64,000 nt of DNA from Gemmatimonadota bacterium (GTDB lineage: Bacteria > Gemmatimonadota > Gemmatimonadetes > Longimicrobiales > Gaopeijiaceae): assembly GCA_034521595.1 (NCBI GenBank), contig JAXHMG010000003.1, forward strand, positions 992,001 to 1,056,000, in the 5' to 3' direction. Shown here piece after piece: positions 13,840-34,825 of this stretch. The notes below the pieces were generated by a model. The model searched no databases. It was not told the DNA's origin and saw only the letters and a list, made by a program, of their open reading frames with translations. How positions within the stretch are numbered: position 1 is the stretch's first letter; each line of letters starts with the position of its first letter. A program made the translations under genes and the position numbers.

Positions 13840-13852
13840 CTGGCAGACCTCC

Positions 13853-14545: not shown

Positions 14546-14590
14546 CACCGCCGGGATTGTCGGAGGGCTCCAGTCCATGAGGATGGCGTC
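14545..14590 (+). repeat. Degenerate copy of the IS3-family left end
   Basis: ccaccgccgggattgtcggagggctccagtccatgaggatggcgtc vs IS start at 30967 tgaaccgcccgggattgtcggaggctccagtccttgagaggatggggtc. Confidence 0.8.
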
Positions 14591-14750
14591 GGCTGCGTTG
14601 AAGAAAATCGAAAAAGGGGCCGACGAACACCGTTGCGCCCCAAGATCCGTGCTCACCATTGACCGGGTCCTTCTCAACGATGTCATCCGCCGTGTGGCTC
14701 ACTGGCAGTCCCATCGACTCCCTGCAGTGGCGCAAAATCCCGCATTCATT

Positions 14751-15802
14751 CAATCAGTGCCCACTTTCCTCCGGTCCCATTCAGGAGCCATCGTCAGTAG
14801 CGCATCTTCAGCCCCTCCGCAATCGTACACTGGATATCCGGACCTGAGACGGCGGAGATTTAGATACGCATGTAGCTCAAAGCCCCTTTCAGGGGCGCAC
14901 ATACTCAGCGCACGCCATCAGTTACGATGAGCCGATCGCAGTCTGGACGGTCCTCTGCGTATGCTTGTGCTGGAGAGAGCGGACAAACAGGAGTTGCCCA
15001 TCTTTTTTGCCTCGACGACGACGCGGAGGGAACCGTCGGAGCGAGGGAGCCTATCGAACAACGCGACATCGACCCGGTTCCACTCCACTGCCATCCGCTG
15101 GGGTGTCCACCCGAGCGCCCGGAGAAGTGGCGTCACCAGATAAGCAACGGTTTCATGCTCCACGGCCGGCTCAGCGTCGTAATCATTTCGCGATCCGCAT
15201 CAACTCACCTATCTGGCTCACGAGGAATTGATAGACGAATGGCTACACCTCGGTCAAGAGGAACTCGGAAATAGCATCAATGCCGGTCTCGATGCCCGTC
15301 ACCGTCGACAGGCAGGTCGACGAGTTCCCGTTCCCACGCGTGCTGCGGGACCTCGAGTTCCTCAAGCCACTTCTCTACCGCCGGGCTGTCCAGCTCTTGG
15401 GGTATCACCGAGCTTCATGGCGTAGGTTTCAAATTCCCTAGCGCCGTTCTCCGCTCACAACCAGCGCACTCGCCGAACGTGTTGTAGATCCCAACCATCA
15501 ACATCGCCGAATTCGTCGCTCCAGAGATATTCACCGACGACCTCACCCACCCCGAGGACACGAGCAGTTCCCGTGCGCAGAACCACAATTTCGCCACTCT
15601 TCATCTCGTCGCAGAAGCGTCGAAGGTCCGTGAGCTTCCGCGCTGAGCGGCCGGCCCGGCGGAGGTCATCTTCGCACCCTGGCCAAGGGCCGGCAGACCC
15701 GGGTCCATTGAGAATGACATCCCACCTTAGGCATAGGCGGGCATAGTTTCGGTCTGTATCACCTGCTGCTTGCTGCCAAACTGTCTTGCCCGTGATGTCC
15801 AT
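14751..15802 (-). pseudogene. Putative nuclease: PUA/EVE-like N-terminal domain plus HsdR_N-type PD-(D/E)xK domain (frameshifted)
   Basis: N-term EMKSGEIVVLR..VLGVGEVVGEY..HVRRVRW; C-term ETVAYLVTPLLRALGW..RVDVALF..VVVEAKK..LIVTDG. Confidence 0.6.
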
Positions 15803-15833
15803 GTCTGCTCAGACGGATTGCGAGGTGAAGGGT

Positions 15834-15857
15834 GAAGAACGTTCAGGCTTGTTATGT
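15834..15857 (-). repeat. Collapsed attC-like site (outer ends only)
   Basis: aacgttcagg-cttgttatgt joins the two termini seen in the full repeats; lies between a gene end (15910) and the next ATG (15802). Confidence 0.5.
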
Positions 15858-15909
15858 GAGGTTCTGGGCCACCACTACCGCTGCTGGCTCTTCCCTCCAG
15901 GCGCAGCTC

Positions 15910-16644
15910 CTACACGGAGAAGAGGTCGATCCGAAAGTCCTCAACTCTTCGCTGCCCCGAAGGGTCGTCCCAACTGACAACTACCTCGAACTCAGTCGGC
16001 GAACCCATTGTGGGGGCCGCCAAGACGGAGACTGATTCACCCGGACGCAGCTTCGGAGCCGGGAACTTCCTTTCTCGTTCGTCCCCGACCAAGATCTTCT
16101 CATGACCACCGTTCAATGGAATGAGCTCCTGAAGATCAACATTCGTCGCTTCTGCGTTGCCAGTATTGATGAACTCAACTCGGCGGGTGCTTCCCGATCC
16201 GTGGCGTATCACCTGGACCGAAACGAACGCTTCGGCGTCGTCCGGTTGATGAGAAGCCGAATCCTCCATGGGCTCGACTGAAGGTGGATCCTCCTCAAGC
16301 ACTTCCGCAATGACGTCGTCCAACGCAAGAACGTGATGCGCCAGCTGAACAGCGGTCGTCTCAACTAGCATGTTTGCCACTGTGCTCAACAGCAAGGAGT
16401 TCGAGACGAAGCGCTCCATTGCTGGCGCAGCTCGGGGTTGTCGTCGTGAAATACCGAGCCGTAGAGCCAAGCTTCGAAGACGTCTGCGTGGGTCAGCCCA
16501 TCGAGCTCGACGTCTTTGCTCCTCAGCACGTCTAGATAACTGGCGCGTAAGCGTGAGAGGTGAGGGCGACGGTCCTCGCAGGACTTGGCTAAGATGTTGA
16601 GCGCGGTCAGAAAAAGCGCGCTCTTGTTGCATCTCCGCTAGCAT
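15910..16644 (-). CDS. Hypothetical cassette protein (may extend to 16846 via frameshift); beta-rich C-terminal domain
   Basis: 244 aa ORF between attC-like sites; C-term VEFINTGNAEATNV..FEVVVSWDDPSG. Confidence 0.5.
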   Translation of the reverse strand: MLAEMQQERAFSDRAQHLSQVLRGPSPSPLTLTRQLSRRAEEQRRRARWADPRRRLRSLALRLGISRRQPRAAPAMERFVSNSLLLSTVANMLVETTAVQLAHHVLALDDVIAEVLEEDPPSVEPMEDSASHQPDDAEAFVSVQVIRHGSGSTRRVEFINTGNAEATNVDLQELIPLNGGHEKILVGDERERKFPAPKLRPGESVSVLAAPTMGSPTEFEVVVSWDDPSGQRRVEDFRIDLFSV

Positions 16645-16903
16645 ACGTCCGACGGAGTGCGATCATGAAGGAAATGCAAGCGCTCGCTATCGTGACCCCT
16701 CCGGGAAACCGATAGCTGACTTCCGGAACGCGCGGATATGGAGACGCCGACATCGCCTCCAGACCGAATGATGGTCGACTCCAGGATATCTCGGCCGCAG
16801 CGCGGCGGACCGCCCGGAGTCGCGCTAGTTCATCCGCTTCAAACAAGGGCTCCCACGCCTCCGACGTTCCCGTTCAGGATTCCCGCACGTTCAGAACCGA
16901 ACG

Positions 16904-17023
16904 TCACAACGTCTCGCGCTTCCGCCGCACGCCCAACATGGTCGACTCACAGCGCAAGCTGCAAGGCGAGCGCTGCGGACCCATCTACCCTGTCCGCGAC
17001 AGCAGCAAACGCATTATTCAGCC
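16904..17023 (-). repeat. Divergent attC-like site
   Basis: Minus strand: GCTGAAT-AAT-GCGTTTGCTGCTG...CGGCGGAAGCGC-GAGAC-GTTGTGA. Confidence 0.5.
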
Positions 17024-17304
17024 GATACCGTCGAGACAGGGGATCGTACTGGCGATTGAGAAACGCCGAGACCGACTGCTCCCGTGGGGGCATTTGAGGT
17101 TGTACTGCACTTGCCTCACAGGCAGGTGCGGATCCGCGGCGCCTGAGGCGACTCACGGACTGGCGGGCCAGAAACTGAGCGAAAACCATGACCGGTCTAC
17201 GCGGGCCAAGTGAGTCCCGGTCAGCGGCTACGCCGGGCGCTCGAAATCCGGAACGGCTTCTTATAAGTTTGACTATGCACCGAAGAACTCGGAGAGGTCC
17301 CCGT

Positions 17305-17932
17305 TTACCGAGGCACATCTTCTCCGGCTCTCTCCTGTGCCTTGCTGAGGATAGAGCGTCTATGCGCTGCCCCGATCAAGAAGACGCCTACCGTGAAATG
17401 TCGATGCCGGGAATAGTCATCGATTCCCTGTAGCATCGCTTCTTCACGACGTTCATTCATGGTCGTCCAGGGACCGCAATCCATGACGCGACGATGGTCA
17501 ACGGCTTTGCGACCGGCGAGCCATTCGACCGTGTCCGGACTTTTGGACTCCGGACCAAGCCTGACTGGACCGTTCGCTATTCAGATAGGCGAATCCGGAT
17601 CTCTCGATCCACGACGCGTTCTCGTCGATCAAGCGGCAGTACTTGCGGCTGGTGCGTTCAATCTTCTGAACTAAGAAGCGTTTTGCTCGAAAGAACCCTT
17701 CGTCCGGCTGGGGCAGGTCTACCGGAACAATCGGCACCTTTTCGGTTTCTCGGTAGCGCCTTATGGCGATCGATCTGAGGTTGCTGCGGGTGCCGTCTAG
17801 GAAGTCGCCGAGAGCTGCTGGCGGGAGTTCAAGGAAATTATCTGGTCGGATCCGTTCGAGAATCGCAACGAGGCGGGGAACGGCGACGAGCCCTTCCTCA
17901 TGAGAGTCCCGACGAACTAGCACACGGGTCAT
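17305..17932 (-). pseudogene. Hypothetical cassette protein, TraB/TIKI-like motifs (frameshifted)
   Basis: HEE..LERIRPDNFLE N-term and GVFLIGAAHRRSI C-term in another frame; RBS-like GAGGG before the ATG. Confidence 0.5.
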
Positions 17933-17947
17933 TCCGCATCCCTCACT

Positions 17948-18023
17948 GACCTAGGCGGCATGTCTGAGGTTACGTAGGTCGAACCGGACGAAGTGAGCCG
18001 AGCGGGAAACATGCTCGTTAGGC
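17948..18023 (-). repeat. attC-like site (one arm intact, other degenerate)
   Basis: + strand gtaggtcgaaccggacgaagtgagccgagcgggaaacatgctcGTTAGGC matches the right half of the 22370/23674/33084 repeats. Confidence 0.7.
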
Positions 18024-18057
18024 GGCGTTGGGCCGTGTTCGGCCAGAGCGATCGCGA

Positions 18058-19025
18058 TCAGGTCACCAGTTCCAAGAGGTCGGTTTCAGTAATCTCTCTC
18101 ACCTCCAATCGACCGCGCTGCGATGCCGTGGTGGAATGCGGGAAGATGTCGATGACCAGGATGAAGAGAGACTTGTTGTTGTGCGAAAGCACGGGAAGAC
18201 CCGAAACCGTATCGCTCACGGCAAGCCCGAGATCTGCCTCGGACGTCTTGAAGACCACCAGATATCCGACGGGTTCAGTTGTAGTCCTGGGAGTAGATGT
18301 AGAGCTGATTGACCCCTCTTGCGAGGTAGGGGACGTCCTTGCCTGAGTCCGGATCGAAGATCTTGGCGTCCGCAATCAGTCGTTCCTCTCCGGTCTGCGC
18401 TTCGACCAGATCCGCCTCGCCGGACGCAGAAGCCGGTTCGATCGCAAAGTCGAGCCCCTGATCGAAGAGATATTGGTACATATCTAAGGCCAGCACCTTC
18501 TCGCCCCGCTTCTCCGCTGACTGCCACGTCTCAAAAAGTCTCGACCTGGAGAACCACTCGCAGCGGTGCTTGTAGCGAAGAAGGAGGCCGAGCACCGCCC
18601 GCCCGGTGTCCAGCTTCTCGTCGATGTACTCGTAGAGTGGCTCGGTCGAGAGCTCGTGTGAATTGCTCACCCCAACCCGACACGTGTGTCCCGTCTACCC
18701 GACCGAGCCGGTAGGAGACTGAGTACACTGGAGACCTCCCTCGTCGGACAGACTGGTGTTCGATGAGAGCGAGGGCGAGCGAAGCATGCTCTTCCTCCGT
18801 GGTCGGCTCGAAGAACCCCCCGGCCGTCAAGGAGCGGCTCAATCCGCTGGTTGGCATCTGGCACTTCTAGACGAAGGTCATCCAAAACACCCCAGAGTAA
18901 TGAGTGGCTCGAACGCCAATACTGCCTGAGCCCTAAGACGTAGTGGCCTCGGAGCGGGTCGAGTTAAGCCGACGCACTCGCTTCTGCAAACCGTATCGAA
19001 GTGCCTGCAAGACGTCGCTATTCAT
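18058..19025 (-). pseudogene. Cassette protein with C-terminal PD-(D/E)xK nuclease-like domain (frameshifted)
   Basis: MNSDVLQALRYGLQKRVRRLNS N-term; SGEADLV..RLIADAKIF..NQLYIYSQDYN..GYLVVF. Confidence 0.6.
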
Positions 19026-19113
19026 ATCCAGAACTCGATCTCGCCGAACGAGCGAAGGTGGTACTGAGTTCATCGACCGCACGACTACTTGCGCTCAGCT
19101 TTGCGGGCGCTGT

Positions 19114-19745
19114 TCATGTGATCGTCGAGTTGAAGGTTCCGCTTACATTCGGCGGCAGATGACTAGGTTCGAGTCCGGATTTCACGATCATCGCCGGGTT
19201 AAGGAAACCACACTTCGGGCATGGAACATCGATCTCCGCGTGATCGATGCCAAACACGGCATCAGGCATTTCCCTCCTTCTCTTCGAACCCGGCGGCGTA
19301 GAGCGCGACGAGGCCACTCGTGAGATCTAGGATATGCACGACGCGCCCATCCGCGAGGTGGATGCCGATCTGCACTTCGCCTATGCCAAAAGCACCCTTG
19401 CCGTAATGCCCTCGGCCCACAGCCTTGCTGGGCCGACGTGGAGACCGCACCAGGCGTCCCACGCCGAACAGGATCGAGCTCGAAGTGCTTCGATGCGTTC
19501 GCTAGGTCCGGCATGCCCGAGAATCTGATGCTACCAACTCACGAAGGCGATCCGGAGGGAAGTCACAGGTATCATCCCGTTCGATCCACTCCCGCAGGCG
19601 GTATCCGTAACCACGAAGTTGAAGGCCCCATCAGACGTCACCTCGTCGTCCAGAGCAGCCAGATCCCGCTTCAATTTCTTGAAGAGGTCCTCCGCCCCGC
19701 TAGGCCGTAGCGTAACGTTCCTTCTCCCCTTGTTATCTAGGACGC
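19114..19745 (-). pseudogene. Hypothetical cassette protein (frameshifted) followed by a small CxxC peptide
   Basis: EDLFKKLKRD..VTSDGAFNFVVT, DLANASKHFEL, GKGAFGIGE; then IDVPCPKCGF. Confidence 0.45.
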
Positions 19746-19787
19746 CCGCTCACCAGTCTGGACCCTCCTACCTGAAGGCTCAATGCC

Positions 19788-19881
19788 GCCTAACGTTCAA
19801 AGTTGCGGTCGTGGCTCGCGAACACGAGGCATGATCGTCGTAGTGAGCGTACCGAACGAAGCCGGCAACTGATTGTTATGT
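19788..19881 (-). repeat. attC recombination site (94 bp)
   Basis: Minus strand ACATAAC-AATC-AGTTGCCGG...CCGCAACT-TTGAAC-GTTAGGC; paired R and L boxes. Confidence 0.85.
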
Positions 19882-19884
19882 GTC

Positions 19885-21134
19885 GTATGTCGACGTCGAT
19901 CACCCCATCTGTGACAACCCTGCGCAACTGTTGCACCCGTCGGTTCGTGCCGGGCCTGGGCGCGCGCCGCCCTCGTACTGCGATGAGAGCGCGAGGATTC
20001 GTTCGGAAGAACCCCTCCGCCGCGGATACAGTGATGTCGGTGCGGGTCGGTGATCAACTCCCTATCGCCTTCCCCTCGAACTGGGAAACACGATGACCGC
20101 GGCCGGCCCAATGCTTCAAGAGGATCGTTGAGTTCAGGAGGTCGGTCTGAAACATCGAAACTAGCGCTGTATCTACAATGCGTTGGGTCCACGCCCACGA
20201 AGTAGAACATGAATACTGACTTTTCGTGCGAAAGAAACTCCAGGGCCTTGTCTAAGTTGTAAGCCTTAGGGTTGCAGTCAGGACCACGATCTTGGTCTTC
20301 ACGTCCGTCTCCAGTCAGGAAACCGTCGAACGCCCTCCGATAGTCCCCAGCGTGTTCTCAGTCTTGAATGCAGGGATGCCCTGGCTCGCCCCATGGGACT
20401 GAAGTGCCTGTATGATCTCCTGTCGCAACGTGTCGTCTTCCCCAGCGATCAGGTATTCATTACCTTGCCGCGCACGTTTACTTTTCTCATTAAGGCTGTA
20501 AGCACGATTTCGTTGCGGAACCGATCAACTCTTTATCAAGGCTCTGCTTCAGAGTCACGGCGTGTTGCGATTTCACAAACCGGACCGCCCTGTTCAGGAG
20601 CCGCCACGATCGAACGCCTGGCGAGGTCATTTACGACATATTTGTGACCAGTCGGCGAAATGTTGTTCGTCGCCTCGACAAGCCGAACGAGGTTGTCATC
20701 GAATCCCACAGATGCATGGATATTGAAGAGGCGCTCAATGTTGGCCGGGACATTTTGGATGCCCTGGAATTCCGTCAGGATATCCGAGCCGTTGAAGCTG
20801 CCCTTGATATTATCTACCGGTAGTCACGCGAACTATGACTGATTTTTCGGAGAAGAAGTGGTGTTCGCAAGAAGGACGAAATTCTCAGAAGGTGTCACGA
20901 GACAGACCAGAAACGGGAAGACGTTGACCTCTCGAGATTGGAGAGGGACAGGACCGTATTTGAGAAGCGCTTCTCTGCGGCGGAACTGAACCTTATGGCG
21001 AAATCCTCGCAGTAGAACACTGAGCGGTCTTTCGTTAGGCCAAACTGGGCCGTGACTATACTCGCCAGTCGCGCCTTGTCGTTGATCCCATGGTGGCCAG
21101 CGATCACTTCTAAGAGCTGATTGAGCTTGCTCAT
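19885..21134 (-). pseudogene. Probable type II restriction endonuclease (frameshifted)
   Basis: MSKLNQLL..FSNTVLSLSNL..VCLVTP..NIKGSFNGSDI; directly downstream of and overlapping a DNA methyltransferase. Confidence 0.6.
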
Positions 21135-22120
21135 TTGACGAGCTTGAGGTCGCCTTCGGAATCGACCGTGCCGCCACCTCCATCCCTCGCTCTTGGCCCT
21201 TGCGGCTGTTCCGCTCCCAGAAGACTCCATCCGCATAGCCTTGGATAGACGGGTTGAGCGAAGCCGTGTCCAAGCGTTTGAGAGCCCAGCAGCAATATTC
21301 CGCCACCTGCTCAACGCCTAGGAACTTGCGGCCCAGTTTCTTGGACACTACCGCCATCGTGCCGCTCCCCAAGACCGGGGATCCAAATACAAAACCACTT
21401 CGATCCGTGCTGGCGAGGATCAGCTTGGCGAGGAGCTTCTCCGGCTTCCTAGTCGGATGGTCCGGTCCGGCATCGACCAAAAAGGAACCGTAATGTCGCT
21501 CCAGATATTCGATGGGTGCGTAAGACGGAAATTCCCGTCTTCACTTTCGTCCCAGTCTTTGGGATGTCCGGCCTCATCCCGGTACGGAGCGATCACCCGG
21601 CGCTTCACCTTTATGGTATTAATGTTGAAGTAGTAGGCATTGGACGCGGTGCAGAACCAGATATCCTCTAGTGTCCTCTTCCAGTTGGACTTCGCTCCCC
21701 GGCCTCTTCTCTCGCTCCCACGTGATCCGATTCACGACCAACTTGTCCTCCAGAATCGGCGCTATGAGCATTGATGTCCTCCAGTCGGAGCACACCAACC
21801 GTGCCCTGCGGTTTCAGCGCGGGAATCAGAACGTCGAGAACGGACCCAAACCACGACCGATATTCGTCCTTTTGTTTCTGCTTGAACAAACGCCCGTTGG
21901 GTTCTTTGTGATGTTGTAGGGAGGATCAACTACGATCAAATCGGCGAAATTGGTGGAAACGGTGCGACCTCAAAGAGGTCCTGGTTTACAACTTCCCCTT
22001 CCAAAGCATCCGCGGAAGTAGGCTCACTTAGGCGCTTGAGCCTCTTGGATAGACTCCTGATCTCGTCCTCGTCACATGACAACGTTCGATTTCGAGGGGC
22101 TCGGCTTTTGAGCAGTTCCT
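21131..22120 (-). pseudogene. Beta-class N4C/N6A DNA methyltransferase (frameshifted)
   Basis: VDPPYN, NRITWERE, EDIWF, HPSNIWSDI, HPTRKPEKL, LGSGT; catalytic motif precedes SAM-binding motif. Confidence 0.85.
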
Positions 22121-22369
22121 TCGGAATACAATGCCGGATGTGGAAAGTTTCGAGTTCCTGAGCCATCTGCTGGGCCTGTACAGCAGCGCCAGCGGGTTCT
22201 TGGATCGGAGCGTGTGGACCCTCAGCGCCAGCTGCCAAGTTCAGTGCGGCTCGGCCCCGGACTGAACGGCGTCTCTGGGCTCTAACGTGGCGATGTCAAC
22301 CGTGGCACCGTAGTGGCTCTGGTGCCGAACATGAGCTTCTGAGGGTCGCGCCCCCGAGGACGCATGTCG

Positions 22370-22531
22370 CCATGACGTTCAGATGTTTCCGACGTGGCCA
22401 CCGCCGAGCTGCTTACATGCGAACAGAAGCGGAAGCCAAGTTCACTGCACCCAGTCTACGGACCCAAGGCGCTCGAGGCCATGTAGGTGGAGCGGGCGAA
22501 GCCCGCGGAACCGGAAACATTCTTGTCATCA
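22370..22531 (-). repeat. attC-like site (~160 bp family) with GAC/GTC cores
   Basis: + strand ccatGAC-gttcag-atgtttccg...ccggaaacat-tctt-GTCatca; arms near-identical to the 33084 copy. Confidence 0.85.
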
Positions 22532-22559
22532 CACGTCGCACACACCCCTGATGTCCGAC

Positions 22560-23658
22560 ACCCACCTGCGACTGCTATCGCCCCTCTCGAAGGGATTGAG
22601 CATGGAGGTGAAGGTACCTCTTCGAGAGGCTCTGGACTGGTCCGACTGGTAGATCTCCTCGGGAGCATCTTGGCCATGAAAAACGTCGTCCCGGTTCTTC
22701 TTGGCCTCAGCAAACGTCTCTAGGTCTGCGTCCGCCTGCTCTGGTGCCAGGCTGGAGGCGATCGGCGAACTTCTCCGTGAGCCGATACTTGTCCTTCATG
22801 ACATCCTGAACTCGACTGATGTAATGGCCGTGCGCCTCAGCAGGGACCTCACGTCGAAGCGCCTCGAAGAACCGCTTCTCGTCGTATCCAAACACCTTGT
22901 TGGTGAACATTTCCAAGGCTGCCCATCCCGCTCTGAAATGACCGGAGTCGGTCGGATGAGTTCTCCAGCGACGCTAGGAAGAGATTGAAGACTGGATCGA
23001 GCTTCCGGAGTACGTCAAGATCCATGAAGGTCTTCAGGACATCGTCCTTCAGTGTCGTAGGAAATGACTTCCAGTCCGGTAGCGGTCGCTGAGCCCCCCA
23101 TCTGTTTGGCGAAAACCTTCTTCCATCGCCGCGATCGTACCATAGAGCTGTTGTGTACGGCTTCAGGGTAGCCGAGTGCTCGGACTCCACCGATACCGCG
23201 AGCATAATAGCTGCCGTGGATCGTTTGGTATCACCACCTATATCGGCCCCAGAGGCTCCGTTCAGCCGGACAACAACCTCCCCGATCTGACGCTCTCGCT
23301 CCGAATCGGGAAAGTCGGCCACCTCCCCGATTCGCCGTACGACTAGGTAGGCCCTGGCCCGGCCAAGGTCTTGGCGATGAGATCGAGCGATCTCGACCTC
23401 CTGCTCAAGGCGCTCTTCCGGCGTCCCTTCCGGTCCGCCTCCACTCAGCGCGCGGAGCAGCATGTTGCCTACTGCCACGCTCAAGTCAGCATCGGCGCAA
23501 TGGGGATCAGGGTCCGGAGTGATGCATGCCCACAGACCGTCCTGATCCACGAGGACCACTTCCCCTTCAGCCGGTGCCGCGAGTCCGGATAGCTCCTGAA
23601 CGACGGTATGGACGAACTTGAAGACGGTATCCGGGATCACGTATACGGGAAGGCACAC
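22560..23658 (-). pseudogene. Cassette protein with C-terminal HEPN-like Rx4H motif (frameshifted)
   Basis: 269 aa ORF continuing in other frames to AKKNRDDVFHG; fills the gap between two attC sites. Confidence 0.5.
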
Positions 23659-23673
23659 CGCTCACGCGATGTC

Positions 23674-23833
23674 AGATAACGTTCTTGTGTTACCGACGTG
23701 GCCCACCACCGGAGCGCTCAGAGTTGACCGCCCGAGAGTAGGCGCCACTCCGCTTCCGCGCCACGAAAGCCTCGGGCCATGTAGGTCGGAGCGGACGCGA
23801 AGCGGCCGCGGAGCCGGCAACACTTTGTTATGT
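23674..23833 (-). repeat. attC site (160 bp family)
   Basis: + strand AGATAAC-gttctt-gtgttaccg...ccggcaacac-ttt-GTTATGT. Confidence 0.88.
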
Positions 23834-24197
23834 GAAGTCGCGATCACGAATGGTCAGGCAACCGACACGTAGGCTACGACCAGTACCGTTCCCAATCCCG
23901 CCGCAGGGTTTCCAACAGACGTCGGGCTGCCTCTACCTCACCAGCACTTAGTTCCCACCGGGCGTTCAGCACGCGATTGCTAAAGCCGGACGGGAACGCA
24001 TTTCGGTCGAAGTTTCGTACCCCTCGCAGGAGTCGATCCAAGGCCTCCAGAGCACGCTGGAACTCCGACCGGTTGTCCCTCGTCGGCTCGGTGTCCCGCA
24101 GTATTTGGATCGCCCCGTCGAGGTAGCCTACGAGGACCGCCGATGGCGGTGGCGCCCCTGGCGGGGCGTTTGGTCGCTACAGCTTCCGCGTGCGTTT

Positions 24198-24416
24198 CTA
24201 GCTCCTCGGCCAGTTGGTGCAGGTCCGCGATCCGGCTTCGAACCAGTCGGGCAAGACCAGTTTCCCACCCCTCGGGGAGGAGGCGCGATAGTTGGCGGCC
24301 GAACTGCTCATCCGTGCCTGCCGCACCGACTGCACGGACGTCATCCCGAGTGCCTCAGCGAGGTCTTGATGCTTCGGACATTCCGTGAGCCGGTCCGTCG
24401 CCTCGATGAAGTCCAT
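24198..24416 (-). CDS. Small helix-turn-helix protein (3' end probably frameshifted)
   Basis: MDFIEATDRL..HQDLAEALGMTSVQSVRQAR; GGGAGG RBS-like motif. Confidence 0.6.
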   Translation of the reverse strand: MDFIEATDRLTECPKHQDLAEALGMTSVQSVRQARMSSSAANYRASSPRGGKLVLPDWFEAGSRTCTNWPRS

Positions 24417-24437
24417 CCTTCGAAACCTCCCATGTGG

Positions 24438-24484
24438 GTCTATGGTAGCATAGACTGCCACGAGGGTCTATGTCAAGATAGAAC
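24438..24484 (-). promoter_or_regulatory. Sigma70-type promoter overlapped by two palindromic operators
   Basis: Minus strand TTGACA-N18-TATGCT; GTCTATG-gtag-CATAGAC (24438-24455) and GTCTAT-gtcaag-ATAGAA (24466-24483). Confidence 0.7.
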
Positions 24485-24727
24485 GGCCACCGCATAGCGC
24501 CCAGGCGTCTCTCACCGATAAGGCACAGGCGATTTCGTGCGTGCCTCCGCGCTCTGGCATTCAGCGAAGCCCGCTACGAGGCTTCCTCATCCTCTGGCGG
24601 CGGCATCTCTACATGGAACTCCTCCTGTGCCTCTTCAGTGCGGGTCGGCAAATAAGTTCCCGAAGGCCTCGCATACTCGCTCGCACTGCTCGCCTTTGAA
24701 CATCGAGCGGCAGTTCGAGAGAGGCCT

Positions 24728-25514
24728 TCACGGTGCCATCGAGACCGCCAATGCCTGCTTCACTTCTTCTGAGGACGGCTCGGCATCTCCATGTACTGAT
24801 CTATTCCGGAGCCGGTAGACATCCGGCAGGGCAGCTATGAGTGCTTGGTCAGGCTCAGGTGCGTTGGACAACGCCTTCATGGAAAAATCGAGAGTCGACC
24901 CAGTAAACCGTTGACCTTCATCCAAGAACGCGGCCATCAAGGCTCGAATGCCGCGCTCGAAACGAGCGAACCCGTCAACGAAATCCAGCACAGCGCTTCG
25001 TTCGGGGCTGACCGCGCCGCTGGGCTCGTCCGACTGAGCGGGTGCGGGCGGCGTAACGAATCGCACCTTTGTCCAAACTTCCCGACTAACCGTGTCGGTG
25101 ATCCAGCCATTTAGGTCGGTGTCGAACTCCGTCTCGAGAATCTGACCGAGTGCGTCGAACGCGGTTTCCATGTGATAGTCCAGACTGACGTCATCCACAT
25201 TCCCGTAGCGGTGTTGGATGGCGTTCCGCTCATCGACCAGCAGTTCGACCCGCGCGTGAAAATCCAGCTCGGTCGAGGCTCCATAGCTTGGCCAGGCTCG
25301 TGAGGGCTTCGTGGGTGTTAATAGTGCGGCTGCCGTTCTTCTCGTAGATCGGGACGTTGCGTTCTATCAGAGCGGCCTTGATCGCCAACTCCACTGCCTG
25401 AGCAAGATGCAGAACGGCCACCTTACGGTGGCGCGGCGTGTCACTGGCGTAGTTCTCAAGCCCATGCTGCAGGATTTCCAGGGCGAAGCGGAGGATCGGT
25501 GAAGTCTGTGCCAC
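24728..25514 (-). pseudogene. Protein with two HEPN-like Rx4H motifs (frameshift near 25260)
   Basis: LHLAQAVELAIKA..ERNAIQH, and FARFERGIR..RLRNRSVHG. Confidence 0.65.
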
Positions 25515-25756
25515 TTCCGCGCCTTCCTTTGCCTAAGGTGTGGCTACCAGATCGGCCAAGCGATTTCACATAACTATCGGTAAGCGACACGGTAAGGCAA
25601 TTATCCGCAACTGCGCACTCCAACAATCAGTACGAGGAGCGCTCTAACCGCCTGCTCCATAGCAGGTGAGCCGCGTTGCAACTAGAGGGATTACGGACAA
25701 GCCGTGCCAAATGTGGCCGCTTTGACTCCGATCCCCGCCTCCAGAAGTCCCAGTCT

Positions 25757-26460
25757 TCATGTGCGAGCGGAGCTCGGTTCGCTCGTCCCGATGAAAGCGC
25801 CAGTTGGGCAGAACCGAGTTCCATCAACGCTTTGAACCGCTCGGTACGGTGTCGTTCGAGACAGTGTCATCGTGGACGAGGATGTATTCGAGGCATTTCG
25901 GAGGTTTCTCAGCCAGCTCCGTGTTGAGCCAGATGCGGCCCACTTCCGCGTTGCAGGTTCCACCGGGTCTTCATCCGCCGGACCCGTAGGTCGCTCGCCT
26001 TGACACGGACCCTCGCCTCCCATGTTTCCAGCAGATCTGCAGCGGCATCGCGAACCTGTGAACGGTACCAACACTCGAGGACGGCATCCCTCTTCTCCCG
26101 ATCCGAGCCCCTGCGGACCAGCAGCTCCATCCGGGTCTTCCCGACGAGGCGCACCGAGGGTGGGCCATCATGCTCCACGACGTCCAGTCGATACCGCCGG
26201 CCCCGGAAGTAGTGGCTTTCTCCCGTCACGAGCTCGCGCCTCGATTGCCTCTCCTGGCCCTCGAAACTCCTTGCGACGACGCCGGATCCAAGCCAGGCGC
26301 GTCACAGATCGCCAGACGGACGGCATCATCGTCCAGGTGGAAGGAGCGGCGACACCTCACGCGGCCAGCCGGCGGGTAGACACCCCACATGGAGGTTCTT
26401 GATCTGCTTGCGCACGACGTCAACAGCGATGCCGCCGACCTCGATCTCGTGACGTTCAGT
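25757..26460 (-). pseudogene. M48/YgjP-type (DUF45) metallopeptidase associated with type I R-M (frameshifted)
   Basis: VYPPAGRVR, GESHYFRGRRYRL, VRRMKTRW, EYILVH; directly downstream of hsdR. Confidence 0.8.
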
Positions 26461-29400
26461 ACTCACGTTGGGCCTTCACGATCTCGAACAGGGCCTCTGC
26501 CAGGATGTCGTCTCCTCCGACCTCGGCCTTGATCGCATTGCGAACTTCGCGCTCCTTGAACCGGTTTCCGCGCCAGTCTGCCTTCTTGACCTGGCGGATG
26601 GCCCGATCGATGGCGATGGCCGTCTCGCTGCGGCACGCCTCGGGGCGACGGCTCTCGCAGGCCGTATCGGGCGCCGAGCTCCATCGAGATTGTCGTAGAG
26701 GGCGCGGAGTGGAGGTGTCTCGATTTCGGCTGGGTAGGTGGAGCCGGTGTGTGGTTGACTCACCTTCCACGTCAGGTCCACAATCCCAGCCAGGTACGCC
26801 TTGTAGTCCAGCGCTTCTTGGCGGCGTTGTGTGATGAGTGCGTCCAGCAGCATCCGACATGTGCTCGTAGTACTTCGGGTTGACGGCCATCTCGTCGATG
26901 ATCAGGCGGCGGACGTTGTTCTCGATCGTCTCTGCCATCGCCTCCCGGTCGCTCGGCGCAGCGTCTGCGGCAGGGCATCCAGACCGCCTGCTTCGCCACG
27001 CTCGACGATCAGTTCGACAAGTGTCAGGTCGTCGAAGGCTGAGAGCTTTTCGCTGTCCTCTGCGCGGATGTAAGTGTCGAGCAGGTGACGCATGGCCGGC
27101 TCGTACATCTTCATGTCGATGTAGTCGCCGCTGGCGAGCTTCACCTCCTCGCGGACCTTTTCGTAGTGGGTGACCTCCCCCCTGACCGCCTCCGCCTCTG
27201 CATCGGAATAGCCCGCCTGGCCCATCTCGTTCGCGAGATTCGCATAGGCCCGCACGTACGCGCCCAACCAGCTTATAGAGTGCGATGCGCTTGGGCTCGT
27301 TGTTCTTCAGTTGTTCGCCGTTTCCGCTCTCGGCGGCGCAGAAGTAGCGCAAGTGGGCCGACGTGTCTCGCGGCGGCTCCACGGGCTCGCACAGCGCCTT
27401 CACCGCCTCGCGCGCCTCCTCCAGCCGCTCGTGGCCCTGCTTCGAGCCGATCCTTTGAGCAGTCCCGCCACATCCTCTTGGTCGTACCCGCCGAAGGCCT
27501 CGCCGGTGTAGTCCTTGATGGACTGCTCGAGCGACCGGAACAGGTCCTTGTAGTCGACGATATAGCCGTACTCCTTGTCCTCGCCGTCGAGCCGGTTGAC
27601 GCGGCAGATGGCCTGGAACAGGCCGTGGTCCTGCATCTGCTTGTCGATGTAGAGGTAGGTGGCCGGCAGCGCGTCGAACCCGGTGAGGAGTTTGTCGACC
27701 ACGATCAGGAGCTTCATCTGGCCGGGCTGCTCGACGAAGCGCTTCTTCACCTCCTCCTCGAACTGCTCGACCTTGTACATGGCCTTGCTTTCCGGCTCAT
27801 CGAAGTGGGCCGCGAGCATCTTCCGGTAGATGTCGTACTGGTGAAGCTTTTCAGTCAACCCCTCTCCGGTATCTCTCGCCCTTGATGTCGGCCGGCGACG
27901 GCTGGTACAGAGGTGACGATCGCGCACTTGCCCGGCGAGATCCGGTCTGCTGGAACATCTCGAAGAAGCGGCAGGCCGAGTAAATGCTGCCCGACACGAG
28001 AATCGCGTTGCCGTGACCGCTCTTGAGCCGGTCGCGCGTCGCCATGTCCATCATGATGTCCGCGACGATGGTTTCCAGCCGATCACGCGCCGATAGCACC
28101 TTTTTCATGGTGCCCCAGCGTTGCTTGAGCTGGGCCTTGGCGATGTCCGTGAGTCCCTTGGTCTTCAGCTCGAACCACCGATCGACCTTCTCCTGCGAGG
28201 TGATGCGCTGGTCGATGTCGCGAGCTTCGTACGCGAAGATCCAGCACCACACCGTCGTGCACCGCCTCGTCGTACTTGTAGGTGTGGATGTAGGGGCCGA
28301 ACGTCTCGATGCTGCGCCGTTTGTCACTCTTGAGCAGCGGCGTGCCGGTGAAGCCCATCAGCGTCGCATCGGGCAGTAAAGCCTTCATTGCCTCATGCAG
28401 CTTACCGGACTGAGTCCGGTGGCACTCATCGACGAAGACGAAGAGCTCGCCCTTGGGCGCGGAAGTCCCTGGGGACGTGCTTCTTGATGTCGTCGAGGAA
28501 GGCGGCAACGTCACCTTCCTCTGAGGCGCCGAACTTGTGGATCAGCGAGCAAATCAGCCATTCCTCGCTGGCGTTCAGCACCTGTGCGAGGTCGGCGCCG
28601 CTCGTCGTGCGGTAGATCTCCTCGCTGACGCCCTTGAAGACCTTCTCGATCTGGTCGTCCAGCTCGGTGCGGTCGGTGATGATCAGCACCCGGCTGTCCG
28701 GCACGTGCTCTCGGATCCACTTTGCGCAGCCACACCATGATCAGGCTCTTGCCGCTCCCCTGGGTGTGCCAGAGGATGCCGCCCTCCCGCTGAAGCGCAT
28801 GCGTCTGAGCGGCCCGCACCCCGAAGTACTGGTTGTGACGGCAGGTCTTCTTGATGCCGGCATCGAAGACCATGAAGTCGTGGATGATCTCGAGCAGCCG
28901 CTCCTTGCGGCAGAGCTGGCCCAACTCCCGAAGTAGCGGATTGTCCCCGGCCTCCGGATCGACCTCGGCTTCCTTCCAGCGGAGCCAGTACTTCTCCGGT
29001 GTCTCGATGACGCCGTAGCGCAGCCCCTCGGTGTCGTTCCCCGCCATCACCAGCTGCACCGTCGCGTAGAAGGGCCGGATGAAGGTCTTCTTCTGGCTGT
29101 CGAGGTTCTGGCGGATCCCTTCGCTCACGGACACGGTCGACCGCTTCAGCTCCAGCACGCCGAGCGCGACGCCGTTCACATAGAGCACGACGTCAGGGCG
29201 TTTGGTATGCTCGCCGGCGACGGTCACTTCCTCGGCGACAGCGAAGTCGTTGTTGTCGGGGTCCTCCCAGTCGATCAGCCACACCGTCTCGGTCTGCTCG
29301 CCGACATCAGGCCGAACCTTCACGCCGTAGCGCAGGAGGCCGTAGACCTCGCGGTTGGCGTCGTAAGCGTCTTGCTGCCCGACAGTCCGGCGGCCTTGGC

Positions 29401-29599
29401 CAGTGCGAACAGCACTTTGCCGATGATCTTGTCGCCGTGGCCTTGCCCGTCTGAGCCAGTCCGTCAGAAGGGCCTTCTCGACGTTTCCACTGCCCTCGCG
29501 GTCCTTCCAATACCCGAGGTGATCGTAGCCGAGGGCATCCCGGAAGAAGTCGATCACTCGCTTCTGGGTGAGGGCTTCGCGTTGACCGACGTTGCTCAT
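26456..29599 (-). pseudogene. hsdR: Type I restriction endonuclease subunit R (many frameshifts)
   Basis: RPDVVLYVNG..LELK, WHTQGSGKS, DECHR, GFTGTP, VVDKLLTGFDA, QAICRVNR. Confidence 0.92.
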
Positions 29600-30477
29600 A
29601 CCCCCGCCTCCGCGCGCGCATTCTGGAGCTGCTTCAGGGTGACGCCGTGTGCATCCTTCCACGCGTTCCTGCCGTTTGCGGCGCCGCCAACGAGGACTCC
29701 GGCCGCCAGTGGACGGTGACGCGAAGCCGGAAGTCCTGGGTGAACACGAGATGGACACCCTCTTCCACGAGCACCGCGCGGTCCCGCGAGTTGTCGGCGG
29801 AGGTCGCGAATGATAGTCATGGACCGATTTTCGTCTCGGAGGCACGGCCCTTCGACCCCTGAAGCACAACGAAGCCATCCGCCAACTTCGCGCCCTCTCG
29901 CCTCACTTCCCCTTTCCGAGAGATATAGCACCCCGTCGGCTACCGAGGCAGGCTCGTCGGTGGCCGCTGCCTCGAAGGCATCCACGCCTAGCAGAGGGTA
30001 GATGACGAGCATCTCCGCCAGGAACCACTCGGCGTCGGCCCGGTCAGCCTCGGACAGGGGTGGCTCTCCGGCACGCTGCCGTTGTCGAGCTCCCACTGGT
30101 TTGCGGATCATCGCCAGGGCGAGCAGCCTTGCTTCCAGGAAACGTACGACGGCCTTGTTGAGGCTCTCGTCGGTGCTGGTGAAGGCGACGAAACGGGTTC
30201 CAGAAGTCCTTGCGGCTCGCGTGTTGTTTGCATCCGTTCGCGCAGCACATCGGCCTCACCGACGTAGAGGCGGTCGCTACCGCCGTCGCCCGGCCCAAGG
30301 AGCAGGTATACGCCTGGCCTGCCCATCTCCTCCCGCTCTAACGCGCGACCCAGCTGTGAACGACTCGCCACCACGGCTCGCCCGACCCAGTTGGACTTGT
30401 CGACAAGGCGGATCCCGTCCGGAGAGCCGTCTGCGAGGAAGATCCGAATGGAGGTGGGACGAAGGTCGCGACCCGTC
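29596..30477 (-). pseudogene. GIY-YIG nuclease / DUF4357 protein (frameshifted)
   Basis: SIRIFLADGSPDG, PGVYLLLG..LYVGEAD, AAGVLVGGAANGRNAWK. Confidence 0.8.
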
Positions 30478-30966
30478 TCCCGTTTCGGAGTCTGCGGGTT
30501 CGACCAACCGGATGCGGCCCGTGAGTAGCTGCTGCATCATGCCCTGCTTGATGGCGCGGATCTTGTCACGGCGGCGCTCCAGCGCGGCAATTTCCGCGTC
30601 CATGTCGGAGAGGACGGTGGCGATGGCAACCTGTTCCTCCTCCGTCGGCGGCAGGGCTACTCGGAAAGCCTGGAACGTGGGGAGACGAAGCGAATCGACC
30701 GTTGCCTTGACCGTGTTCTGCATCGCCCAAGCGCCGAATCTGATCGCCATGAAGGAATGGACGAACCTGGTCGACACCCCCGGCGACATTTGGGTGATTG
30801 CATAGACCCTCTGATGTACATCGAACCGACCACTGACGTAATGGAAGATCTCTCCGATGCAGGCCTTCCCCGGGGACGAGTATGGCTTCATCGGTGAGGG
30901 AGTAGCTGTCAATTCGTTCCACTACGTCGGAGCGTACGAAGAAGGCGTATTCGCCGTCCGGAACCT
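30470..30966 (-). pseudogene. hsdS: Type I R-M specificity subunit, 3' part only (cut by IS3)
   Basis: LPPTEEEQVAIATVLSDMDAEIAALE..KQGMMQQLLTGRIRL. Confidence 0.9.
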
Positions 30967-32301
<1,335 letters not shown>

Positions 32302-32572
32302 GTCCCGCTGGCGAGCATCGTCTGGAGTCTCCGGCGGCCTGGTTCATTGCGATCCCTAACGTGGCGTCTGACCTTCATGATGGCGAGGCATGCATAGTGT
32401 CGTTGTTTACGACGCCATCGACGAAGCCTCGGCTGAAGCGGGATGTGCTGTGAACCCCATGCGAAGCGACGCCGTAGAATGATCCAAAAAGACGCGCCTA
32501 GACCGAGTCCCAAACCCAATGCAGACGCACCATCAGCAAGGAACACGATCGCCGGGGCGAGCGGGTGATTGC

Positions 32573-32875
32573 TCAAGCCCATCGTTTCTCCGCGATGGGC
32601 GGGATCCGCGCAGCCGCTGCAACAACTGTGACGATGATGACGGCGACCGCGACAAGACCGAGCGCAAGCAGTAAAATCCCGAGCAGGCCTTGCGCCGATT
32701 GGACCGCAACTTGCACGACCACCAATACGATGGCCAGCGTCGCAGCTCCGATGCGCTTCGTGCGTGCCCAAGTGATTGATTTCCGCCGGATCGGGTGACC
32801 GCATCCCGGGCAAGACTTCGCTTCAGCGGAGATTTCCTTGGAACAGGCAGGACAGCGGATCAGGACCATGCACAC
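32573..32875 (-). CDS. Zinc-ribbon membrane protein
   Basis: LIRCPACSKEISAEAKSCPGCGHP followed by hydrophobic helices. Confidence 0.65.
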   Translation of the reverse strand: MCMVLIRCPACSKEISAEAKSCPGCGHPIRRKSITWARTKRIGAATLAIVLVVVQVAVQSAQGLLGILLLALGLVAVAVIIVTVVAAAARIPPIAEKRWA

Positions 32876-33083
32876 CTCTCATCTCGCAGTGTGTTCCAGA
32901 TTGATAACGTAGCTCATTGAACCCAAGGCTGCCTAAATCGTATTCGCCGACCGCGTAGCGGTCCGGCGGGTGTACGCGGGTCCATCATATAACGCACACG
33001 TGTCGCTCGTTGGCACCGATCCCACGGTTCCACTTATCAGCGCCGGGCGTAGGCACGCGGAATCCGACCCGAAAACACATGTC

Positions 33084-33241
33084 CTATAACGTTCAGATGT
33101 TTCCGACGTGGCCACCGCAGAAGCGCTCATCTTTCCTGAGACCTACGGAGTTCAGCTGTCAGCCTACGATGTCCGACACGCTCGAGGCCATGTAGGTCGG
33201 AGCGAACGAAGTGAGCGGAGCCGGAAACATTCTTGTTATAC
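33084..33241 (-). repeat. attC site (158 bp family)
   Basis: + strand CTATAAC-gttcag-atgtttccg...ccggaaacat-tctt-GTTATAC. Confidence 0.9.
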
Positions 33242-33303
33242 GGCGTGTGCCGTACACTGCATCTGGCACCCTCCCGATCCTGCTGACCCTTATGGTCAGG
33301 ACC

Positions 33304-33963
33304 TTATACTGGTTGCCGCCCGTCACTGAGGATCTGGGCGGCTCGACGAAAGACGTTCAGCACCTCATCTCGTCGATCGGGTCGGCGGTTCAGGGAGCAG
33401 GCTGCTCGGGATGGTGCTGGCTTGGGGACGGCCGCCGTCGAAAGTGCGCGGACCTGCGCCTCGACACCCGTTGCGCCTTCCGCCCCAGATCGGGTCGCGG
33501 CTCTGAGGTTCGGGGAGCAGAGTCCGATCAGGGCGTGCGAGCCGTGGGGCTGCCGAATTCGTAGATCCGCCGCGTTATCCGGTCGTATCTTGGTCCCGGT
33601 CCCCACGTACCAGGGGACCACATTCCAGATAATGCTCTGGTTACGAGCGATCCCGGCCTCGTCCGACGGCATGGACATGTTGCGTGCCGAGGGGTCAGGG
33701 TTGTCCCGTGACACAAAGCCTGATTCCACCGCTTTTCCGCCTGGCGCTTCAAGAAGGAACAGAGCTTCGGCGGCAATCCCACCATCGCAAGGGTCAAAGT
33801 GCGGCGTATCGTGGTCGGGCCCAAGCTGGTTCCGTAGGTCGGCTAGGAGATCCTCCAGCGGGGCGACGTGCGGCAGACCCAGTAAGGCCATACGTCTGTT
33901 CGTCTCGCCCGGCCGCTTGAGCGCGTACGGCATCTCAGCTCCTGTAGAAAGTCGCACACTCAT
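33304..33963 (-). CDS. Uracil-DNA glycosylase superfamily protein (C-terminus probably frameshifted)
   Basis: PHFDPCDGG..LFLLEAPG..SGFVSRDNPDPSARN..WNVVPW. Confidence 0.8.
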   Translation of the reverse strand: MSVRLSTGAEMPYALKRPGETNRRMALLGLPHVAPLEDLLADLRNQLGPDHDTPHFDPCDGGIAAEALFLLEAPGGKAVESGFVSRDNPDPSARNMSMPSDEAGIARNQSIIWNVVPWYVGTGTKIRPDNAADLRIRQPHGSHALIGLCSPNLRAATRSGAEGATGVEAQVRALSTAAVPKPAPSRAACSLNRRPDRRDEVLNVFRRAAQILSDGRQPV

Positions 33964-34222
33964 GCACGTGGCAGCTCCCTGCCGAGTGGTTCGAGCCCTC
34001 CGGCCCTCAAGGTACTTCGAGGCACATGACGGATAACTACATGTTCCCCGAGGGGACTTGTCGGGAATGCGATCCGATAGAGACGGATTCGCGACCCTCT
34101 CATGGTCGTTCCATCCCGGCTGTCAGCACACACATGGGGTCTGCTGGATCCAGCCGATCTTCTTAACTCTGCGTATTCCGGCCACGCGGCGTTGGCGGGT
34201 GATCCTTCTTCCTCTTCCGCAC

Positions 34223-34483
34223 TCATACTCCGTTCCGTCGGAGGTGGCGCCAGGCCGAGCTGTCGACTTCAGCGTCGTGGTCCGGATCGTCCGCCGTTGA
34301 GCCCTGATGCGCCAGAGACTCCCGCAGGGCGGGGCGGGGAAGCCTCCAGTCACGCCCCTGGAGCTTGTAGCCGCGGAGCTCGCCGGCGATTGGCCACCGC
34401 CGGATGGTCGACGGTGACCGCTGAACCTCCTCGGCGACCTGCTCCACACTCATGTCCCGCGTCATGGAGGGCTGCACGTCCAC
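34223..34483 (-). CDS. Excisionase-type HTH DNA-binding protein
   Basis: [35 protein letters not shown]. Confidence 0.75.
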
Positions 34484-34789: not shown

Positions 34790-34825
34790 GCACCACCTCG
34801 ATGAACCGAGGACCATCCCGCAAGC

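Follow-up and report, generated by a model that had tools for sequence, protein, structure and literature searches.

This work concerns a cluster of integron-like recombination sites in a 64,000-nt stretch of a Gemmatimonadota genome (hereafter the window: C3:992001-1056000, C3 being contig JAXHMG010000003.1 of a 3.49-Mb, three-contig assembly with 67% GC and 93.25% completeness). The homologs of proteins encoded in the window bear Gemmatimonadota names. We propose that the cluster is probably a satellite of an integron-like cassette system of this genome, and that it resembles a cluster of attC sites lacking an integron integrase (CALIN). The sites share a conserved, covarying structure with a main array 0.98 Mb away, which immediately follows the gene for a 399-aa tyrosine recombinase and runs in the same direction. 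The window feature alone is a CALIN, and the recombinase and the type of site make it more than that. The initial annotation of this DNA, which had described a cassette cluster loaded with defence genes and shuffled by an integrase encoded elsewhere, was largely right in what it observed. Its reading, a cassette cluster served from elsewhere, is of the right kind, but the recombinase is no IntI and there is little in the way of defence genes.

Recombination sites in the window

Three copies of ~160 nt and one half copy were apparent from find_repeats and from the sequence itself. A covariance model (R1) was built from 20 copies of the site lying outside the window (alignment A1), and the whole window was scanned with filters off. 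With this model, built without any window copy, five matches below E 0.05 were obtained, namely three full-length sites starting at 22369, 23673 and 33083, a short site at 19787 and a degenerate one at 17914 (Table 1). The best R1 score on the reverse strand was only 11 bits, at the complement of the best site, and the model is therefore strand-specific. Two further vestiges, reduced to the R box, emerged from a pattern search for AACGTTC-N(0-12)-TTGTTA: the window matches it exactly twice, on the + strand at 15838-15854 and 19714-19735, where 100 shuffles give an expectation of 0.00; at 15833-15857, R1 gave 9.7 bits (E 0.83), below significance.

At least seven hairpins and a weaker one had been described by the initial annotation. 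Four of these eight places are confirmed as sites and two survive as degraded remnants, but two do not stand: place 16904 has only a 9-mer left half-site at 16887, and place 19043-19118 has no R1 match. The vestige at 19714 is an addition to that list. The common orientation described there holds, since the supported sites all lie on the + strand by R1 or by the pattern search. Likewise, the placement of the sites between genes is right for 22369, 23673 and 33083: an ORF (open reading frame) start at 23658 lies 15 nt from site 23673, and an ORF stop at 33304 lies 62 nt from the site end at 33241. At 19787, ORF 19797-20210 runs into the site. The clustered sites 19787, 22369, 23673 and 33083, with no integrase match near them, also fit the definition of a CALIN, i.e., at least two clustered attC sites and no integron integrase nearby, in the part of the survey drawn on here (Cury 2016, PMC4889954), an assignment that hinges on accepting these sites as attC; the AAC...GTT ends and the paired R and L boxes named by the initial annotation are present.

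Structure and polarity of the site family

The full site is an imperfect palindrome of ~155-160 nt. Along the + strand, an R stem (ATAAC...GTTAT) is followed by a short asymmetric spacer, then by an L stem (TGTTTCCG / CGGAAACA), by a third stem (ACGTGGCC / GGCCATGT) with an invariant G.T, and by a variable middle; on the 3′ arm, a C-GNA-G triloop closes a conserved side hairpin. Five helices were recognized by RNAalifold and our own reading: R, L, the third stem, a three-pair stem at the base of the side branch, and the branch hairpin. In A1, 96.3% of the cells pair and 7 of the 31 pairs have changed on both sides; the covariation score was reached by none of 500 shuffles, and slid controls pair at 33-44%. 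The 14 non-training sites (four from the window and ten from three other contigs), whose alignment was fitted to the model, pair at 92%, with 20 of the 31 pairs changed on both sides; their covariation score was likewise reached by 0/500 shuffles, and their slid controls pair at 32-54%. The family thus displays the attC architecture, with R′′/R′ boxes ending in AAC and starting with GTT, paired L′′/L′ boxes, and structure kept over sequence.

Several features bear on the polarity of the site. The stem-3 G.T is present in 20/20 training copies, and the opposite strand would carry an A.C mismatch in its place; the GNA triloop is on the + strand; and the - strand spacers measure 5 nt on the 5′ side and 7 nt on the 3′ side. 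A like spacer inequality is found on the intI strand of canonical Gemmatimonadota sites (5 and 6 nt in locus L079) and on the top strands of class 1 attC sites. In addition, one array ORF (C3:29913-30905, -) spans its interval from site to site. Based on the G.T, the triloop, the spacer inequality and the ORF orientation, the - strand would be the 'top' (cassette) strand and the + strand the one that folds, with the crossover presumably falling between ATAA and C on the + strand. The unequal spacers, 7 nt vs 5 nt, are partly paired, and the fold has 3-nt and 1-nt bulges and a ~28-nt side hairpin, among which there might be counterparts of the canonical extrahelical G and T bases.

Main array and satellites

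A nhmmer search found 31 copies of the site in the 3.49 Mb, 17 of them in C3:605-32701, two at the start of contig C1, and 12 in seven other places, including four in the window. The first two groups make up the main array; as the C1-start copies lie on the opposite strand, C1 probably continues it. The main array therefore has at least 19 sites, which are spaced ~0.4-1.1 kb apart around single ORFs and HigB/HigA-like pairs, and among the products encoded there are SnoaL-like and HTH_3 proteins and, on the other strand, a Gp49/HigB-like protein. It is interrupted by a copy of an IS3-family insertion sequence (IS) and 12.5 kb of non-cassette DNA. The possibility raised by the initial annotation, that the repeat might occur genome-wide, is answered by this clustering, as 19 of the 31 copies lie in one array beside the recombinase and the others are confined to seven places, of which five or more are patches of low GC, which is not the dispersal of a miniature inverted-repeat transposable element (MITE) or a repetitive extragenic palindrome (REP).

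The satellites comprise one at 332 kb, 7.6 kb from a tRNA-Ala and beside an intact hsdM; one in a low-GC patch at 968 kb; another at 1.45 Mb; a group of four copies (1.505-1.519 Mb) within an island that begins at a tRNA-Leu with a PF00589 ORF and contains hsdM fragments; and a single, weak copy at 1.96 Mb. Several clusters of this site family are thus island-borne, and the window holds one of them. For two of these islands the extents were recorded as well: the low-GC tRNA-Ala island spans C3:324708-336000 and carries the intact hsdM at 334764-335702 together with the sites, and the low-GC tRNA-Leu island spans C3:1489552-1521000 and carries the PF00589 ORF at 1489787-1490239, site copies, and the fragmented hsdM at 1501472-1502452.

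A recombinase without the IntI-specific insertion accompanies the array

The window has no PF00589 or TIGR02249 match, in line with the claim that it holds no integron integrase. In the assembly (93% complete), TIGR02249 found the array-side recombinase, two Xer proteins and a 33-residue scrap, and no canonical IntI. Hence, the idea that an IntI encoded elsewhere shuffles the cassettes stands in that a recombinase for this site family is encoded elsewhere, and fails in that it is not a canonical IntI; shuffling of the cassettes today is putative.

The best-matching family of the recombinase is the integron integrase (TIGR02249), but its score of 213.5 bits stays below the cut-off of 265 because the alignment falls into two pieces and leaves out the IntI-specific region of the profile, at about model positions 174-235. 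The same gap appears against its best solved relative, VchIntIA (2A3V), where residues 293-317 of the recombinase (25 residues) correspond to residues 173-239 of the chain (67 residues). It is thus without the ~40-aa IntI-specific (I2) insertion, and the genome's only candidate does not have the intI_Cterm / I2 region by which the integrase of a complete integron is recognized. The spacing from KDR to HxLRH, a motif readable in 21/75 rows and then in 3/6 added rows, is 59 aa in the recombinase and three orthologs, compared with 99-101 aa among 11 canonical IntI, E. coli IntI1 being one of them, and 63-66 aa among seven Xer-like rows.

An extra N-terminal domain occupies residues 1-75 of the protein (L001:1195-2394:-), has the predicted order beta-beta-alpha-beta-beta-alpha-beta with a predicted local distance difference test score (pLDDT) of ~90, is conserved in the recombinase family, and matches no Pfam family. 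Its fold matches, to the N-terminal domains of two proteins, are weak and below the meaningful level: XPB 5tnu (Z 4.7, root-mean-square deviation 2.4 over 55 residues) and UvsW 2oca (Z 4.6, 2.5 over 61 residues). The predicted fold of the whole recombinase has a mean pLDDT of 65 and is confident only at residues 1-75 and ~115-200.

In a tree of 42 rows (quick search, support from the Shimodaira-Hasegawa-like approximate likelihood ratio test, SH-aLRT, only, midpoint root), the canonical IntI form one clade of 19 rows with SH-aLRT 100, which includes E. coli IntI1 and a Serratia IntI, and the Gemmatimonadota I2-less proteins form another (5 rows, support 96) outside it. The IntI, the I2-less clade and IS91-associated recombinases together make up a superclade (support 100) apart from XerC/D, the inner order of which is unresolved. 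The recombinase family is rare, being found in 4/151 sampled genomes of the phylum at E<=1e-60, and canonical IntI was found in 0/16 sampled genomes of the bacterium's own family, 12 of which are in 1-3 contigs. Two unpublished genomes (G097 and G057) are within the 151-genome IntI tally, and the IntI of G097 (L062) is in the motif and tree sets; no conclusion depends on either.

The association of this recombinase with this type of site is not confined to one genome. In three other Gemmatimonadota contigs, R1 found sites downstream of the ortholog: 11 in L016 (E 4.5e-16 to 0.047) and one in L015 (2.4e-10), and one site in the metagenome contig L092 (2.9e-15), all on the strand opposite the recombinase gene, as in this genome. 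Sites thus follow the gene in 4/4 loci with at least 450 nt of downstream sequence (this genome, L016, L015, L092); four others (L017, L075, L090, L091) end 221-410 nt after the gene and have no sites there. As a control, five canonical IntI loci (100 kb) gave a single weak R1 match, lying on a canonical attC (16.9 bits, E 0.028). At 234 nt past the recombinase stop codon there is a candidate attI, in the form of a GTTAT junction to which the consensus cassette flank is joined; the same simple pattern found no similar motif in the orthologous loci.

The insertion and its cargo

The GC content is 53-64% across ~13.85-34.5 kb of the window and 67-71% outside, which marks a low-GC insertion of ~20.7 kb between tRNA-Met and arfB. 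The distance between trkA and the AI-2E transporter gene is 21.6 kb here vs ~0.74 (G165), 0.80 (G160) and 2.0 kb (G163) in related genera, where the insertion has no counterpart; in a fourth related genus the two genes are 70 kb apart on one contig. The claim that the cluster sits inside a tRNA-anchored element is thereby borne out, with the tRNA-Met adjoining, and the phage-type integrase remnant claimed with it is weakly supported by the phrog_216 match (Table 1), no Pfam match being found in these frames even at E<=1. The insertion would accordingly be described as a probable integrative island that picked up, or arrived with, cassettes. Its left 8 kb (15.8-23.8 kb) carry sites every 1-2.5 kb, and a 9.2-kb site-free stretch follows.

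Table 1. Positions of the recombination sites and other features of the window (window coordinates unless prefixed C3), and of the array-side recombinase.
Feature	Position	Strand	Evidence and remarks
tRNA-Met (CAT), left anchor of the island	13766..13840	+	ARAGORN
Phage-type integrase-like frames, split over three frames	13856..14753	-	phrog_216, E 1.9e-4 for 13856-14368
115-aa ORF	15455..15802	-	matches only ~59-120 of PADLOC PDC-S02 (profiles 308-346 long), E 6.7e-6
R-box-only vestige, left end fused to right end, interior gone	15838..15854	+	pattern search
Degenerate site, only 3′ half recognisable	17914..18023	+	R1 16.7 bits, E 0.019; nhmmer 1009913-1010029 (C3), E 5.5e-9
Second R-box-only vestige	19714..19735	+	pattern search
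Short site, 95 nt, with R, L and side-hairpin parts and almost no variable middle	19787..19881	+	R1 37.9 bits, E 2.4e-7
ORF whose N6_N4 DNA methylase match is confined to the C terminus of the domain (161-216 of 221)	20833..21480	-	PF01555, E 2.8e-12
Full site	22369..22531	+	R1 120.3 bits
269-aa ORFan, sole ORF between two intact sites	22849..23658	-	cassette ~22376-23679, 1.3 kb
Full site	23673..23833	+	R1 121.3 bits
Two ORFs	24728..25514	-	upstream ORF 25230-25514 matches 14-79 of PADLOC PDC-S19 (355 positions), weakly HEPN
YgjP-like metallopeptidase fragment	25909..26229	-	PF01863, E 9.5e-14
Type I restriction hsdR, at least 4 overlapping frames	26456..29878	-	HSDR_N, SWI2_SNF2, T1R_D3; PADLOC REase_I E 6.2e-126, 2.1e-24
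hsdS fragment, one specificity domain	30277..30912	-	PF01420, E 4e-6
IS3-family element, ~1.33 kb	30967..32300	+	HTH_21 + rve; blastn 87% over 1344 nt
Full site	33083..33241	+	R1 132 bits, E 3.7e-29
219-aa ORF, faint UDG-superfamily likeness	33304..33963	-	PF03167, E 0.12
HTH_17 (excisionase/AlpA-type) ORF, right island end	34226..34531	-	PF12728, E 1.1e-7
arfB, right of the HTH_17 ORF	~34770-35190		RF-1 domain
Tyrosine recombinase, 399 aa, intact ORF	C3:34259-35458	-	Phage_int_SAM_4 + Phage_integrase domains

The window presents a cassette cluster whose cargo is for the most part unknown, and the defence genes there look incomplete. The 269-aa ORFan between two intact sites has no match in Pfam, NCBIfam or PHROGs, no usable Protein Atlas match, and one weak PADLOC match (HEC-01B, E 0.004). 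The site-free stretch contains the PDC-S19/HEPN-like fragment, the YgjP-like fragment, hsdR, a DUF4357 ORF, the hsdS fragment and the IS3-family element. No hsdM (N6_Mtase) match was found in the window, those of the genome lying at C3:334764 and C3:1501472-1502452, so that a complete Type I restriction-modification (R-M) system is not present, with hsdR in several frames and hsdS as a fragment. To call the element 'loaded with defence genes' is therefore too strong, given these R-M remains and two N-terminal fragments of candidate systems (PADLOC). Among the individual candidates, the HEPN one keeps a PDC-S19/HEPN match that covers only the N-terminal part of the profile, the uracil-DNA glycosylase (UDG) one is left with PF03167 at E 0.12, and the PD-(D/E)xK one has no match. 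The R-M block is not flanked by sites at cassette spacing, the sites there being 9.2 kb apart. The IS3 element has further copies at C3:7167-8488 (inside the main array), C3:1978440-1979458 (two pieces) and C1:5888-6651 (three pieces), with 82-97% identity. By blastn, the window and the other loci have no cassette cargo in common, only sites and IS, and tblastx of the island against the attC-bearing loci gave, among the matches listed, only short, low-identity matches outside the sites.

One salt-pan metagenome sample (run X1), the only public run found to hold the stretch, has 32% of the sampled words and is available as contigs only, at ~2-3x depth; it bears on the integrity of these frames. 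Comparison of the window with the eight short-read contig pieces listed for the island, 2,836 nt in all, gives 18 substitutions and 11 single-base gaps, and one piece (14616-14965) has 0 substitutions and 7 gaps. Such indel-dominated differences resemble long-read assembly errors, and it may therefore be that the organism itself has unbroken versions of the integrase, of hsdR and of the other interrupted frames. Consensus indel errors are perhaps present elsewhere in the assembly too. The X1 joints listed fall within the R-M/IS part; their sides are short, and other organisms may be their source.

Discussion

According to the reading preferred here, that the window holds a satellite cluster of an integron-like system, the 399-aa recombinase would work in trans: it would excise or exchange the DNA lying between the three intact sites of the window, perhaps with the short site as a further substrate. 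The degenerate site at 17914 and the two vestiges would be dead remnants. Several observations weigh against this reading. First, the IntI-specific domain reads the extrahelical bases of folded attC, and the gain of the I2 helix is held to have let integron integrases recombine folded single strands, as stated in the part of the source cited here (Escudero 2020, PMC7790495); the recombinase is without this domain, and folded-strand recombination is therefore not a given. Second, the site at 33086-33239 is no stabler as single-stranded DNA than its shuffles (z -1.08 on the + strand and -1.19 on the - strand), as 30 (+) and 28 (-) of 200 shuffles fold as well; the case rests on covariation and context, and stability is not used. 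Third, R2, a stand-in model made from the canonical attC sites of two other arrays, has no significant match in the window (best 10.2 bits, E 0.63, at 19784-19887), nor on the main array. Fourth, the ORFs of the main array do not share one orientation: in 9 of 15 short intervals, the longest is on the - strand. Fifth, all 29 copies on C3 lie on the + strand, on both replichores; the GC skew switches at ~1.17 Mb and 2.93 Mb, and with + strand copies on both sides of a switch no simple replichore rule applies. Sixth, no attL/attR pair was found at the island, since the 23-nt tRNA end has no second copy with up to 3 mismatches and the sole direct repeat found at the island ends, of 12 nt, is at chance level. 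Seventh, no read-level evidence of excision was found, and none of the X1 contigs (~2-3x) joins two sites across a cassette, which is evidence neither way. Finally, canonical IntI is common in the phylum, with 57/151 genomes over the cut-off, and at 93% completeness a canonical intI could be unassembled. As a separate observation on the GC skew, one of the two Xer genes (C3:1178572-1179372) lies at its maximum, the presumed terminus.

The window sites might instead be inert relics, which arrived with the island or were stranded there and are now shuffled by nothing, and we regard this as rather unlikely. Of the seven sites in the window, four are either degraded or mere vestiges, the site-free stretch carries incomplete R-M genes and an IS, and no variant arrangement was seen in the X1 contigs, all of which would suit relics. 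However, the three full-length sites score as high as the array copies, the recombinase ORF is intact, and site 33083 is 91% identical to two array copies (C3:29756 and C3:16608) and 90% identical to a copy in another satellite (C3:1517125) by blastn, with unrelated flanks, as expected of one exchanging pool.

A further explanation is that the genome had an ordinary integron whose canonical IntI was lost or not assembled, that the I2-less recombinase does something else, and that the window is a plain CALIN formed by rearrangement or by insertion at secondary sites. The frequency of canonical IntI in the phylum and the incomplete assembly would allow this; the main array has been rearranged, as its IS3 copy and non-cassette DNA indicate; and, in the part of the survey drawn on here, recombinases near attC sites that have no intI_Cterm were concluded not to be IntI (Cury 2016, PMC4889954). 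The same part of that genome-wide survey contains no convincing I2-region-less recombinase serving an attC array, and its four intermediate cases lie beside fewer than 3 attC sites (Cury 2016, PMC4889954), whereas here the arrays have 17-19 and at least 11. Moreover, the same type of site lies downstream of the ortholog in 4/4 loci of different genomes with enough flank, it was not found beside canonical IntI in five loci, and no canonical IntI was found in the 16 sampled genomes of the bacterium's own family. We therefore consider the loss of a canonical IntI improbable. That the repeats are selfish elements of the MITE/REP type, or structured 3′-untranslated-region or terminator elements, is very improbable, as their terminal inverted repeats, their usual position downstream of ORFs and their unremarkable folding energy are set against cassette spacing of 19/31 copies in one array beside a recombinase, AAC and GTT ends that are invariant while the stems covary, conservation of the array downstream of the orthologous recombinase in other genomes, and neighbouring ORFs that face both ways, which a terminator leaves unexplained.

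Returning to the satellite of an integron-like system, we tentatively suggest, as a possibility that we would not yet favour, that a recombinase lineage beside IntI, which never had or has lost I2, might run its own integron-like cassette system in Gemmatimonadota, the long folded site being read through its GNA-triloop side hairpin and third stem, perhaps by the extra N-terminal domain. If so, it would represent either a second way of recombining single strands that have folded, or a relic of integron evolution from before I2 was gained, and surveys that require the IntI-specific domain would file all such arrays as CALINs. The literature searched holds no description of arrays served by an I2-less recombinase, and supplementary figures S1 and S5 of Cury 2016 may bear here. 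A conserved I2-less clade beside arrays of this size, with satellite clusters spread into genomic islands, is of interest in this respect: if the enzyme is active on the sites, the origin of integrons could be tested with a natural protein, and an overlooked recombinase may then belong to some of the numerous attC clusters classed as 'orphan' in environmental genomes.

Comparison with known systems

Like the CALINs in the part of Cury 2016 (PMC4889954) drawn on here, the window has at least 2 sites in the same orientation, no integrase near, cassettes without database homologs, and an IS beside or inside the cluster; unlike them, its sites have no significant match to the stand-in canonical attC model R2, are tied to a non-IntI recombinase, and are located in a tRNA-adjacent insertion. 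With tRNA-anchored genomic (defence) islands, the insertion shares its low GC, its position beside a tRNA, the integrase-like frames at the tRNA side, the distal HTH_17 ORF, the R-M parts and the IS, whereas here a flanking direct repeat is missing, the R-M system is incomplete, and the left 8 kb are a cassette array.

The closest plasmid-borne relatives of the recombinase are IS91-associated tyrosine recombinases (plasmids H1, H3 and H11; ~37-41% identity), which fall in the same superclade with IntI and have the 59-aa spacing in the one that is measurable. These are encoded directly upstream of an IS91-family transposase, whereas no Y2 transposase lies within 1.4 Mb of the recombinase described here. 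That the recombinase is part of an IS91 element was considered and rejected: the next ORF is an unrelated cassette for a 396-aa lipoprotein-like product, which belongs to no Pfam family and for which the other loci have no equivalent, and the Y2 transposase matches are ~1.5 Mb away. These Y2_Tnp (IS91-family) matches (C3:1532256-1532438 and 1541376-1541558) lie 14-23 kb past the 1.5-Mb satellite. In a contig of an Acidobacteriota metagenome-assembled genome (L019), a canonical array of at least 16 sites is interrupted twice (4378-6275 and 10380-12274) by a duplicated unit of ~1.9 kb, which holds an I2-less recombinase of the clade found elsewhere upstream of IS91-family transposases.

The sedentary chromosomal integrons, represented by the canonical Gemmatimonadota loci L078, L079 and L082, in which intI is co-directional with the array, likewise have imperfect palindromes with AAC...GTT ends arrayed 3′ of the recombinase gene, the 0.4-1.1 kb spacing, ORFan cargo with HigB/HigA-like pairs on the other strand, and a spacer asymmetry of equal polarity relative to the recombinase gene. 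In L082, ~25 copies of a 21-nt tandem repeat were also seen just upstream of intI (9045-9569). In contrast to these integrons, the system reported here has a recombinase that is without I2 and stands outside the IntI clade, and whereas the canonical sites in this analysis measure 109-126 nt and are without the third stem and side hairpin, its sites measure ~155-160 nt with both conserved.

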